NCBI RefSeq assembly: GCF_013122565.1
Contig: NZ_CP053258.1
Source: Escherichia coli
Lineage (GTDB): Bacteria > Pseudomonadota > Gammaproteobacteria > Enterobacterales > Enterobacteriaceae
DNA length: 64,000 nucleotides
Direction: 5' to 3' (one strand)
Of the stretch, positions 4,735 through 7,104 are shown piece by piece. Both the position numbers and the translations under genes were made by a program. The notes below the pieces were generated by a model that did not search any database, was not told the DNA's origin, and was given only the letters and a program-made list of their open reading frames with translations. Position 1 is the stretch's first letter, and each line of letters starts with the position of its first letter.

Positions 4735-5427
4735 CTAGTGATAACCACGCGCGGTCATAAAATCCGTAATCGCTTTTTCTGCATCAACCAGCACCTGTTC
4801 CAGTGGCTGATTGGCATCGATATCAACCAGTTGTGCACCACCAAAGGTTAACTGTGGCGTTATGGCAATCTTCCTCGCCAGCGATTCCCGTTTATGGTCG
4901 GGTTTACGCGCGCAGGCAACTTCAAGGTCAACATTGAGTTTGATGACCAGATCAGGCTTATGGCTCGCCATCCAGTGAAACGCTTTACGTTCCTGGCTTG
5001 CCAGCCATGAGACAAAACGACTACCTTCAACGTTAGGTGGGAACACCGTACCATCGTAAGCGCCAGGAATTTGGTCCTGAGGATAACGGTCGGTTAGAAC
5101 AATTAACCCGCGACGACGACAGGCAAGCATATGACGAAAGCGCAGTAAGCGACGGGCGACAAACGCTGTAATTACCAGCGCCGGAACTGGTCCTGGCAAT
5201 TTTTTTGCTGTTTTCACCTGATTTCGTTCAATTGTTTTATGTAAGGATTTTCCCATTAACGGTAATTTTGTCACTGCACGACCGACATTTCCGGCCTGTT
5301 TTCCTAAATGAACTCTTTCGGCAGCACCATATTTTTCGACAACGGTAATGAGATGTTCACACACCGTTGACTTGCCTGAACCATCGCTACCAATAACGGC
5401 AATTAATGGAGGTGTTATTGACTGCAT
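4735..5427 (-). CDS. yghT: P-loop NTPase, thymidylate-kinase-like fold (YghT)
   Basis: 230 aa; Walker [13 protein letters not shown] near N-terminus; DRYPQD motif; paralog of the next two genes. Confidence 0.8.
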
Positions 5428-5600
5428 GAATATATCCTTTAATTTAAATATTCATCCAAAATATTTATTTGGTTAATATGTTTTGATGAAAGCGTAAATC
5501 AGGTCAATGTCATAATTAACCATTGTCACAATAAGGTTGAACGGATATTCTGAGCACGGACCACGTAATATTCAATACATTATTTACTGCCGGGTTTTTC

Positions 5601-6314
5601 GTGAATCAACGTAATATGTCAATAATTAATTCCACGCCAGTGCGTGTTATTGCCATTGTAGGATGTGATGGTTCAGGTAAATCGACCCTCACGGCAAGCC
5701 TGGTAAATGAACTGGCAGCAAGAATGCCAACAGAACGCATTTATCTCGGGCAATCGTCCGGGCGAATTGGCGAATGGATTTCACAGCTCCCTGTTATTGG
5801 CGCACCTTTTGGGCGTTATCTGCGAAGTAAAGCGGCACATGTGCACGAAAAGCCCTCAACACCGCCTGGCAATATTACTGCGCTGGTTATCTATCTGCTT
5901 TCCTGCTGGCGGGCGTACAAGTTTCGCAAAATGTTGTGTAGAAGCCAGCAAGGCCATCTGCTCATCACCGACCGCTACCCGCAGGTTGAAGTGCCGGGTT
6001 TTCGCTTTGATGGCCCGCAATTGGCAAAAACCACGGGCGGTAACGGTTGGATAAAAATGTTAAGGCAGCGCGAGCTGAAGCTGTACCAATGGATGGCGTC
6101 TTATTTGCCCGTATTGTTGATTCGTCTTGGCATTGATGAACAAACCGCGTTTGCGCGTAAACCTGACCACCAACTGGCAGCGTTACAGGAAAAAATCGCC
6201 GTTACGCCGCAACTGACGTTCAACGGTGCCAGGATCCTTGAACTGGATGGTCGGCAACCAGCCGATGAAATTCTGCAAGCGTCACTACGCGCAATTCACG
6301 CCGCGCTTTCCTGA
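5601..6314 (+). CDS. yghS: P-loop NTPase, thymidylate-kinase-like fold (YghS)
   Basis: 237 aa; Walker A IVGCDGSGKSTL; DRYPQVE motif; divergent from yghT. Confidence 0.8.
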   Translation: MNQRNMSIINSTPVRVIAIVGCDGSGKSTLTASLVNELAARMPTERIYLGQSSGRIGEWISQLPVIGAPFGRYLRSKAAHVHEKPSTPPGNITALVIYLLSCWRAYKFRKMLCRSQQGHLLITDRYPQVEVPGFRFDGPQLAKTTGGNGWIKMLRQRELKLYQWMASYLPVLLIRLGIDEQTAFARKPDHQLAALQEKIAVTPQLTFNGARILELDGRQPADEILQASLRAIHAALS

Positions 6315-6345
6315 TCACCAAAATGGATAGGGGATGATTTAACGA

Positions 6346-7104
6346 ATGGATGCACTACAAACACAAACTGTTAATAGTACAACCGCGCCGCAGCCCAACT
6401 ACATTCCGGGGCTGATTGCGGTGGTCGGGTGTGATGGCACCGGTAAATCCACACTGACCACTGACCTGGTGAAATCGCTGCAACAACACTGGCAAACTGA
6501 GCGGCGCTATCTGGGGCTGCTCTCGGGCGAAGACGGCGACAAAATCAAACGATTGCCGTTGGTTGGTGTCTGGCTCGAACGGCGACTGGCGGCCAAATCC
6601 TCGAAAACCCAAAGCATGAAAACCAAATCTCCAGCGCTATGGGCGGCGGTGATTATGTACTGCTTTTCGCTGCGAAGAATGGCGAATCTACGCAAGGTTC
6701 AGCGACTGGCGCAAAGTGGCGTTCTGGTGGTCAGCGATCGCTTCCCGCAGGCTGAAATTTCGGGCTTTTATTATGACGGACCGGGGATCGGCGTCGAACG
6801 TGCGACCGGGAAAATCAGCATGTTTCTGGCGCAGCGCGAACGGCGTTTATACCAAAAAATGGCGCAATACCGTCCTGAATTAATCATTCGTTTGGGGATT
6901 GATATTGATACTGCCATCTCCCGCAAGCCTGACCATGACTATGCCGAGCTGCAGGACAAAATCGGCGTCATGTCGACGATTGGCTATAACGGCACAAAAA
7001 TTCTTGAGATTGATTCCAGAGCGCCCTACAGCGAAGTGCTGGAACAGGCACAGAAGGCGGTTTCTCTGGTTGCCATCGTTTCTGACCGCCGAAGTTTAAC
7101 TTAA
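6346..7104 (+). CDS. yghR: P-loop NTPase, thymidylate-kinase-like fold (YghR)
   Basis: 252 aa; Walker A VVGCDGTGKSTL; DRFPQAE motif. Confidence 0.8.
   Translation: MDALQTQTVNSTTAPQPNYIPGLIAVVGCDGTGKSTLTTDLVKSLQQHWQTERRYLGLLSGEDGDKIKRLPLVGVWLERRLAAKSSKTQSMKTKSPALWAAVIMYCFSLRRMANLRKVQRLAQSGVLVVSDRFPQAEISGFYYDGPGIGVERATGKISMFLAQRERRLYQKMAQYRPELIIRLGIDIDTAISRKPDHDYAELQDKIGVMSTIGYNGTKILEIDSRAPYSEVLEQAQKAVSLVAIVSDRRSLT

Follow-up and report, generated by a model that had tools for sequence, protein, structure and literature searches.

Three thymidylate-kinase-like paralogs beside the ceramide locus of Escherichia coli as candidate sphingolipid head-group kinases

A 64,000-nucleotide stretch of an Escherichia coli genome (assembly GCF_013122565.1, contig NZ_CP053258.1; the whole stretch is called the window below) carries three neighboring genes, yghT, yghS, and yghR, whose products (T, S, and R) resemble thymidylate kinases. 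They lie next to a cluster for the synthesis and export of bacterial dihydroceramide. We tentatively propose that the three proteins act at the cytoplasmic face of the membrane as kinases that furnish ceramide with a head group of phosphate or oligophosphate before the lipid is flipped and exported. The literature on these genes and on yghQ, which follows them, consists of screens and regulon lists, with no functional study among the papers found.

Described systems nearest to the locus

In Caulobacter, the ceramide phosphoglycerate pathway comprises the ceramide kinase CpgB together with CpgC, CpgA, and CpgD (PMC10331486, PMC9393093, PMC12275187, PMC11324152). CpgB is a member of the DAGK/LCB5 family with a GGDG motif (PMC10331486), and CpgC (CC_1161) is described as Tam41-like (IPR015222) in a paper supplement. 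The pathway converts a neutral ceramide to an anionic outer-membrane lipid, and its first step is taken by an ATP-dependent kinase. Export of the sphingolipids requires the LptF2/G2 proteins encoded in the sphingolipid locus, which work with the housekeeping LptB and co-purify with it (bioRxiv 10.64898/2026.04.12.717747). The E. coli locus is similar in plan: in both, head-group enzymes (putative ones in E. coli) are appended to a core of spt, acpR, cerR, aasR, and bcerS, in the company of LptF2/G2 and a MOP flippase (CC_1166 in Caulobacter). However, loci of the E. coli type carry T, S, and R and a protein with a CHAD fold in place of CpgA-D, and no homologs of CpgA, CpgB, CpgC, or CpgD were detected in them. 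This looks like a nonorthologous, alternative head-group pathway. A CpgB-type ceramide kinase was considered as an identity for T, S, and R and rejected, as they are P-loop kinases and give no match to DAGK_cat.

A second precedent comes from the archaea. In Sulfolobus, two "thymidylate kinases" form a heteromeric polyphosphate kinase, PPK3, and their function has been reassigned from that of dTMP (thymidine monophosphate) kinase (Hofmann et al., PMC12995831). The PPK3 of S. acidocaldarius consists of Saci_2019 (cPPK3) and Saci_2020 (rPPK3); in the catalytic subunit a basic cleft replaces the dTMP site, and the regulatory subunit lacks the arginine of the DRx motif (PMC12995831). CHAD, PPX, and Pst genes form part of PPK3 operons, and the organisms with such operons mostly lack PPK1 and PPK2 (PMC12995831). 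T, S, and R are likewise paralogs of dTMP kinase annotated, probably wrongly, as thymidylate kinase, encoded together, with a CHAD-type neighbor and a basic acceptor side. They differ in being three rather than two, all with the DRx arginine and none a regulatory pseudo-kinase, and in being no closer in sequence to ST1543 of S. tokodaii, a cPPK3 homolog, than to ordinary thymidylate kinases. Their setting differs as well, with an obligatory MOP flippase, ceramide and Lpt genes, and, in place of PPX and Pst, neighbors encoding PAP2 and LmtA-like proteins. We would not file the system as PPK3, but by analogy PPK3 suggests that evolution can turn this fold to the chemistry of phosphoanhydride chains.

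LpxK, the lipid A 4'-kinase, is a P-loop kinase that works at the cytoplasmic face of the membrane, before flipping and Lpt-dependent export. It provides a model for a soluble or peripheral P-loop kinase acting on an envelope lipid, but it belongs to a separate P-loop family and is absent from the best sequence-profile and fold matches of T, S, and R. With canonical thymidylate kinase (TMK; TIGR00041/PF02223), on the other hand, the three proteins share the overall fold, a GxDGxGKST P-loop with its acidic residue, the DR(Y/F) motif, and a basic lid. They depart from it in a basic LPxxG insert of some 40 residues that replaces the dTMP-binding helices, in an additional invariant set (D125, E146, D177, H178, and K186 in YghT numbering), and in a genomic context of membrane lipid rather than DNA precursor metabolism.

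Paralogy, fold, and ancestry of the three kinases

The gene yghT occupies positions 4735–5427 on the minus strand (230 amino acids), while yghS (5601–6314, 237 amino acids) and yghR (6346–7104, 252 amino acids) lie on the plus strand, 31 bp apart. An earlier note, made from the sequence alone, had the same coordinates and sizes and described three tandem paralogs, one of them divergent from the other two. The divergent gene is yghT, so only yghS and yghR are in tandem; the paralogy, at 37% to 44% identity, extends to all three. T and S are similar over their full length (37% identity, E = 2e-54), as are S and R (44% identity, E = 9e-63), a relationship far beyond chance. The two motifs listed in the note are plain in a three-way alignment: a Walker A motif (GSDGSGKST at T 13–21, GCDGSGKST at S 21–29, GCDGTGKST at R 28–36) and, about 100 residues further on, DRYPQ (T 113–117, S 124–128) or DRFPQ (R 131–135). 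A third motif common to the three, RKPDH (T 174–178), was absent from its list. The names yghT, yghS, and yghR are those used in E. coli genomes, where the trio is flanked by pitB and by a gene for a MOP-family "LPS biosynthesis protein" (yghQ in K-12 usage). The intergenic region between yghT and yghS (5428–5600) contains one sigma-70-like site (5523–5551, plus strand), which is a match to consensus only.

The likeness to thymidylate kinases, also remarked upon earlier, is borne out by fold. The top structural matches found by Foldseek for an AlphaFold2 (AF2) model of YghT are all TMKs (E = 1.5e-8, template modeling score about 0.57), with ST1543 (4nzy/2plr) also among the matches at a comparable level (E about 1e-6). 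The model, which has a predicted local distance difference test score (pLDDT) of 70, was built on an alignment of three sequences and is adequate for fold assignment but inadequate for analysis of the pocket. A profile of 119 family members has as its best match the Aquifex TMK (E = 5e-7); ST1543 is matched at E = 0.006, over the P-loop only. The P-loop, DRx, and lid (RKPDH) motifs align to TMK. The alignments skip the stretch lying between P-loop helix and DRx strand, which in TMK serves to bind dTMP. There, T, S, and R have an insert of 35 to 40 residues with a conserved LPxxG and a net charge of +8 to +15. The isoelectric points of the whole kinases are 9.6 to 10, and this basicity, together with the charge on the acceptor side, fits an anionic or membrane substrate.

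The three proteins are thus members of the dTMP-kinase superfamily, yet they do not score as dTMP kinase itself. In the NCBIfam scan they reach 25.9, 22.1, and 31.1 bits, against a TIGR00041 cutoff of 83.25. None of the three has a significant Pfam match (the i-E values for Thymidylate_kin are 0.05 to 0.44), and their other Pfam and NCBIfam matches are sub-threshold, generic P-loop ones. Nonetheless, RefSeq calls yghS and yghT "dTMP kinase," on scores of 22 to 26 bits against 83, and yghR "nucleoside/nucleotide kinase family protein"; the former name is probably an over-annotation, spread over thousands of genomes. If the RefSeq names were right, the proteins would be genuine kinases of dTMP or another nucleoside monophosphate, as the TMK fold and the P-loop and DRx motifs would allow. 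This is scarcely credible. E. coli has a separate essential tmk, the basic insert (modeled with low confidence) has no counterpart in TMK, and the synteny of the genes is invariably with genes for membrane lipids. The low scores speak against it as well, as does the fate of the analogous PPK3 "thymidylate kinases," now reassigned to polyphosphate kinase (PMC12995831). PPK2 (PF03976) was also considered as a relative and dropped, being absent from the Pfam matches, from the 60 best PDB profile matches, and from the 50 best Foldseek matches.

Perhaps the three are not kinases at all but ATP-binding regulators or chaperones, for example ATPase subunits that power or gate YghQ or LptF2G2. An ABC ATPase to serve LptF2G2 is missing from the locus, and there are weak ABC and AAA matches at the level of the P-loop. 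Those matches, however, cover only the Walker A stretch (about 25 to 35 residues around it for the ABC matches, for which reason an LptB-like ABC ATPase was rejected), whereas the matches to TMK span the fold, and the kinase-specific DRx and lid motifs are invariant. Moreover, LptF2/G2 of Caulobacter co-purify with the housekeeping LptB, and MOP flippases are not known to be driven by ATP. A role of this kind seems very unlikely.

The age of the trio was gauged from a scan of one genome per species, which gave 79 loci from other genera (loci, whether or not among these, are numbered with L below, and proteins with P). They come from Enterobacterales, Xanthomonadales, Cellvibrionales, and Betaproteobacteria, with a few from delta-, alpha-, and myxobacterial metagenome-assembled genomes. 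A neighbor-joining tree of 229 sequences, with more distant fused relatives as the root, resolves T (89 sequences), S (67), and R (67) as three monophyletic clades, of which S and R are sisters. Over 66 to 88 distinct orthologs per paralog, the residues G13, D15, G16, G18, K19, S20, T21, D113, R114, P116, and Q117 (YghT numbering) are 97% to 100% conserved in all clades, as are D125, E146, R174, K175, P176, D177, H178, and K186. Only the Walker A serine falls short, with 89% in the R clade; the arginine of DRx, R114, is at 100% in all three. Three monophyletic clades with their catalytic residues intact imply that the triplication is old, that every copy has been kept, and that none is a degenerate pseudo-kinase. 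The best explanation of these sequences is that T, S, and R are nonredundant, catalytically competent phosphotransferases, most likely exapted to a substrate other than nucleotides. Three tblastn segments of YghR contain stop codons, two at the very N terminus of the segment and one at the very C terminus, and these likely reflect over-extension rather than pseudogenes.

The paralogs may also work together physically, as is suggested by natural fusions of S with R (P0121, encoded in a locus with spt) and of one kinase with another (L090, from Novosphingobium). To judge from these, T, S, and R likely form a hetero-oligomer.

Genomic company of the kinases

Thirteen proteins of the window were compared by tblastn with all 79 loci. 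The triad, with T divergent from S and R, is present in 63 of them. Where it is accompanied by full flanks of 10 kb on both sides (47 loci), spt lies within 10 kb in 40 instances, and either spt or LptF2/G2 is found in 45; Serratia, Carnimonas, and L091 provide examples of this synteny. The lipid-biosynthesis locus beside which the earlier note placed the genes is real (it is the ceramide cluster), and the link to it is much stronger than side-by-side placement in a single genome would make it. The note, which suggested head-group or lipid kinases, had named as counterindications a wide occurrence in genomes lacking the lipid operon and a non-kinase fold. No such wide occurrence was found among the fully flanked loci, and the predicted fold is that of a kinase (TMK). 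The suggested role is thus partly supported, by way of genomic context. Among 5426 complete E. coli genomes, the kinases are present in 4743, the spt genes in 4186, and the whole locus in 4039. About 12% of the E. coli genomes that bear the kinases, including K-12, lack the spt genes, the spt side having been secondarily lost in strains of the K-12 type.

Two genes form a conserved operon with the kinases. The first is yghQ (7150–8499, plus strand), which encodes a lipid-linked flippase of the MOP superfamily (Wzx/MurJ type), identified by an NCBIfam match. A YghQ homolog follows the kinases in both Enterobacterales and Sphingomonadales, and the Novosphingobium copy is 51% identical. The second (8499–9323, plus strand), which overlaps the yghQ stop codon, encodes a basic, all-helical "hypothetical" protein of 274 amino acids (Ybl138) with a CHAD fold. 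It occurs alongside the kinases in 59 of the 79 loci, among them loci where a T-like kinase stands alone. In Sphingomonadales (Novosphingobium, Sphingomonas gellani, Sphingobium cloacae), two or three kinases, the YghQ homolog, and the homolog of the 274-residue protein form a compact operon away from spt. The core unit is thus kinases, MOP flippase, and 274-residue protein; gamma- and betaproteobacteria have it embedded among the genes for making and transporting ceramide. Homologs of the last are found in the AlphaFold database in Sphingomonas, Zymomonas, Acetobacter, Gluconobacter, and Komagataeibacter, and in the literature Sphingomonas, Zymomonas, and Gluconobacter are listed as sphingolipid bacteria that bear spt. 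The Sphingomonadales operon and the hosts of these homologs together indicate that the distribution of the core unit tracks sphingolipid biology even without adjacency.

Some other genes were seen near the operon in Sphingomonadales. In Sphingobium cloacae (L093, 11751–19383) it is adjoined by genes for a GT4 glycosyltransferase, a VTT/DedA-like protein, VirJ-domain proteins, and an MprF-like protein (LPG_synthase_C), further genes for the modification of membrane lipids. A two-component system flanks the kinase operon in Novosphingobium and in Sphingomonas gellani.

The 274-residue protein has no sequence match in Pfam, NCBIfam, or the PDB. An AF2 model built on a 39-sequence alignment (pLDDT 94, predicted template modeling score 0.90) is entirely helical and consists of two helical bundles that match solved CHAD domains, so that on the strength of the model the protein has a CHAD fold, of the polyphosphate-binding type; UniProt labels homologs of 28% to 42% identity as CHAD. 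Its isoelectric point is 9.1, and H93, H105, H193, H237, R60, R88, K92, R95, and R196 are invariant in its family. CHAD domains bind polyphosphate (bioRxiv 10.1101/567040). Like known CHAD proteins (PF05235; Ricinus 6qv5, Chlorobium 3e0s, PptA 6rn5, YgiF 5a61), it belongs to the "long" class of about 300 residues with two bundles, invariant histidines and basic residues are found in each of its halves, and it is encoded with enzymes that would act on phosphate polymers. It differs from them in lacking a significant Pfam match and in being always in an operon with a MOP flippase and dTMP-kinase-like kinases. Two other identities were considered, and the first was discarded. The protein bears no similarity to the N-terminal NTP_transf_5-like domain of the 500-residue fused kinases described below, and it is probably not the counterpart of Caulobacter CpgC, since its Sphingomonadales homolog lies in the kinase-flippase operon and not beside spt or cpgB. 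In the literature searched, no paper ties CHAD or thymidylate-kinase-like proteins to sphingolipids.

Given such a partner, one might expect a soluble, PPK3-like polyphosphate kinase: a heteromer that makes or consumes free polyphosphate reversibly (ATP + polyP(n) -> ADP + polyP(n+1)), linked to lipids only indirectly, for instance through the supply of phosphate or energy. The archaeal PPK3 likewise consists of two dTMP-kinase paralogs; CHAD, PPX, and Pst genes lie near theirs, and its basic cleft is conserved (PMC12995831). The several dTMP-kinase-fold paralogs, the CHAD-fold neighbor, the basic acceptor segments, the fusions that hint at a complex, and the presence of ST1543 among the structural matches all speak for it. 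We nevertheless think it doubtful. Since all three paralogs keep the DRx arginine, there is no regulatory subunit, and profile similarity to ST1543 (E = 0.006) is weaker than that to canonical TMKs (E = 5e-7). While the hosts of PPK3 mostly lack PPK1 and PPK2, E. coli has PPK1. No PPX, Pst, or SixA genes were found near the kinases among the open reading frames and annotations of the window. Finally, free polyphosphate would leave unexplained the obligatory MOP flippase, the fusions to flippases, and the PAP2, LmtA-like, and LptF2G2 neighbors.

These neighbors vary with lineage. A PAP2 lipid-phosphate phosphatase is encoded in 27 loci outside Enterobacterales, in most cases with its start no more than about 1.5 kb downstream of T. 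A gene resembling LmtA, of the lipid A 1-phosphate methyltransferase family, is present in 11 loci, often between S and T. A small lipid kinase of the DgkA type lies beside yghO in 23 loci, mostly enterobacterial, and an LpxO-like hydroxylase occurs in 16. Such accessory genes are seen, for example, among L055–L089 (L066, 9111–9977 and 10793–11356; L063, 16617–17300). All four types have membrane lipids as their targets, and for three of them these are lipid phosphates.

More distant relatives of the kinases are found in other surroundings. There are proteins of about 500 residues in which an NTP_transf_5-like N-terminal domain is joined to a YghS-like kinase domain, followed by a second P-loop kinase with the motif GLPGAGKTT (L005, 5721–9482; L008, 10001–12186). 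The kinase part of these longer relatives is likewise sub-threshold in Pfam and NCBIfam. Some Wzx/Wzy polysaccharide clusters that contain such fused kinases also hold sulfotransferase and ATP-sulfurylase genes. One protein of 978 residues, P0223, is a fusion of MOP flippase, NTP_transf_5 domain, and kinase, in which the Polysacc_synt_3/Polysacc_synt and NTP_transf_5 matches are significant. That a distant kinase should be fused to a flippase implies that the partnership of kinase and flippase is older than the association with sphingolipids. Nitrotoga and other Betaproteobacteria (L055, L063, L071, L077, L086) carry a single T-like kinase and lack S and R, in most cases with a CHAD-like gene a few kilobases away; these loci may represent a simpler or different version of the system.

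The distant relatives also give reason to think of the kinases as acting on some other lipid-linked or envelope substrate, perhaps a glycan linked to undecaprenyl (pyro)phosphate, or lipid A or the lipopolysaccharide (LPS) core, and as neighbors of the ceramide genes simply through a shared role in the outer membrane. The Wzx/Wzy clusters contain glycosyltransferases, Wzy_C, and a sulfotransferase; a kinase is fused to a Polysacc_synt flippase; and in Nitrotoga-type loci there are genes for a glycosyltransferase, a NodU-like carbamoyltransferase, and PAP2. Furthermore, the named relatives of the LmtA-like and LpxE-like neighbors are lipid A enzymes, and NCBI names YghQ "LPS biosynthesis protein." Against this, no glycosyltransferase is present in the operons of E. 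coli, Serratia, Carnimonas, or Sphingomonas, and spt, LptF2/G2, or both accompany the triad in 45 of 47 fully flanked loci. Sphingomonadales carry the module, and Sphingomonas makes no LPS (Klein-lab preprint). On balance, we consider a different substrate of this kind improbable.

A tentative pathway and the locus in E. coli

According to the reading that we tentatively prefer, T, S, and R would carry out, at the cytoplasmic face of the inner membrane, the ATP-dependent phosphorylation of a ceramide-type lipid. Since the reaction characteristic of the dTMP-kinase fold is the phosphorylation of a phosphomonoester, they would most likely lengthen a phosphomonoester into a di-, tri-, or oligophosphate, whose anionic chain would be bound by the CHAD-like protein. 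Flipping of the lipid-(pyro)phosphate product would fall to YghQ, as MOP flippases normally carry cargo linked to lipid pyrophosphate, and its extraction in the direction of the outer membrane to LptB2F2G2. Where other lineages have PAP2 phosphatases and LmtA-like methyltransferases, these might trim or cap the phosphate. Paralogy, fold, conservation of motifs, synteny, and fusions are matters of observation, as is the partner's match to the CHAD fold; the identity of the lipid, the number and order of phosphorylations, and the formation of a hetero-oligomer we infer from them. An equally compatible variant is that the phosphate serves only for a time, as a handle for flipping that PAP2 takes off again in the periplasm.

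A bolder version, which we hold to be rather unlikely, is that the triad, the CHAD-fold protein, and the MOP flippase make and export a ceramide bearing a phosphoanhydride chain, which would be a strongly anionic lipid of the outer membrane. The paralogs would then be an initiator and elongators, or else a single hetero-oligomeric, processive enzyme.

Several considerations weigh against a role in making a sphingolipid head group. The function proposed for T, S, and R draws on context and comparison, and the sphingolipid end product of E. coli is not described in the literature searched. Seven fully flanked triad loci lack spt within 10 kb, and about 560 to 680 complete E. coli genomes, K-12 included, keep yghRST without spt. 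Keio-type knockouts of yghQ, yghR, yghS, and yghT have no striking phenotype, in a K-12 background that lacks spt. Some of the kinase relatives fused to NTP_transf_5 sit in Wzx/Wzy clusters without spt, and solitary T-like genes of the Nitrotoga type adjoin glycosyltransferase and carbamoyltransferase genes (in L063, genes for GT4, NodU-like, and PAP2 proteins), so the ancestral substrate may have been a different lipid-linked molecule. As to the models, that of YghT is moderate (pLDDT 70), with the putative acceptor region, the insert, below 50. The assignment of the 274-residue protein to CHAD rests on structure, the Pfam CHAD profile (PF05235) giving no significant match (one of 39 members is matched, at E = 0.09).

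In the strain considered here, yghS opens a probable plus-strand operon that continues beyond yghR through yghQ and the gene for the 274-residue protein to three further genes. The first encodes a periplasmic protein of the YtfJ family (9332–9895; TIGR01626, 213 bits, above cutoff), which is found in enterobacterial loci. The others are lptF2 (9926–10996, annotated LptF in E. coli) and lptG2 (10993–12072), paralogs of lptF and lptG. A strong hairpin of 16 pairs, 10 of them G-C, lies between the convergent lptG2 and spt (12070–12104) and is a probable terminator. A hairpin search found none comparable between yghS and lptG2, and the sequence is consistent with a single transcript from the one to the other. 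Promoter-like sites in 4600–12300 are no more numerous than in shuffled sequences.

The ceramide genes proper follow on the minus strand: spt (12107–13195), encoding serine palmitoyltransferase; acpR (13195–13443), a specialized acyl carrier protein; epi/cerR (13475–14389), an NAD-dependent reductase of the ceramide pathway; and aasR (14386–16074), an acyl-AcpR synthetase (fatty acyl-AMP ligase). On the plus strand, yghO (16478–17620) encodes an acyl-CoA N-acyltransferase (aca, or bacterial ceramide synthase, bCerS). In E. coli BL21 the corresponding ECD_02851–02854 (AasR, reductase, AcpR, and Spt) have been shown by experiment to make 3-oxo-sphinganine (Padilla-Gomez et al., PMC9386255), and the legend to Figure 9 of that paper gives yghO (ECD_02850) as aca, the N-acyltransferase for dihydroceramide. 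The locus is a bacterial cluster for the synthesis and export of dihydroceramide. It is probably silent in laboratory culture, because in K-12 the overexpression of SlyA raises yghS 3.1-fold and yghS is listed as bound by H-NS (PMC5797941).

In this strain, spt has an 84-bp in-frame deletion, with its junction near 13081, that removes 28 residues (RIGNKKVILAGTNNYLGLTFNHDAIAEG) present in other E. coli Spt proteins (362 versus 390 amino acids), including the NNYLGL block typical of alpha-oxoamine synthases. To judge from this loss, Spt may be inactive; the rest of the locus is intact. In strain MB53 (L001, 20736–21594), IS1A truncates the ytfJ-like gene, and everything from lptF2 through glcB is gone. 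To judge from this strain and from the genomes that keep yghRST without spt, the locus is evidently undergoing repeated erosion in E. coli.

Further along the window, between glcA and the region of tRNA-Phe and yqgA, is a complete type I Wadjet anti-plasmid system (27479–34164, plus strand). It consists of JetA (27479–28975; PADLOC E = 5e-272), JetB (28966–29730; E = 1.5e-116), JetC (29727–33014; E = 0), and JetD (32980–34164; E = 6e-194). At the same site MB53 has only a remnant of the JetD domain.

About 77% of complete E. coli genomes, and many Enterobacterales, carry the locus for the synthesis and export of ceramide, and in three enzymes apparently derived from dTMP kinase, a CHAD-fold partner, and the flippase YghQ there are now candidates for its missing head-group steps. 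The module of kinases, flippase, and CHAD-fold protein, which is conserved over the range from Sphingomonas to E. coli and differs from the CpgA-D route of Caulobacter, is the best candidate for the head-group pathway of the sphingolipids of enterobacteria and sphingomonads. YghQ becomes a candidate for the sphingolipid flippase, reported in the Caulobacter work as still unidentified, and a widespread annotation as "dTMP kinase" is corrected. If the proposed function is right, thymidylate-kinase paralogs would have been exapted to phosphate-chain chemistry a second time, independently of PPK3. An oligo- or polyphosphate anchored to lipid, if it exists, would represent a bacterial envelope lipid of a new class, and its synthesis a membrane-bound relative of the PPK3 type. 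An anionic sphingolipid on the surface of enterobacteria would bear on their susceptibility to polymyxin and chlorhexidine and on their recognition by hosts, as does CPG2 in Caulobacter.

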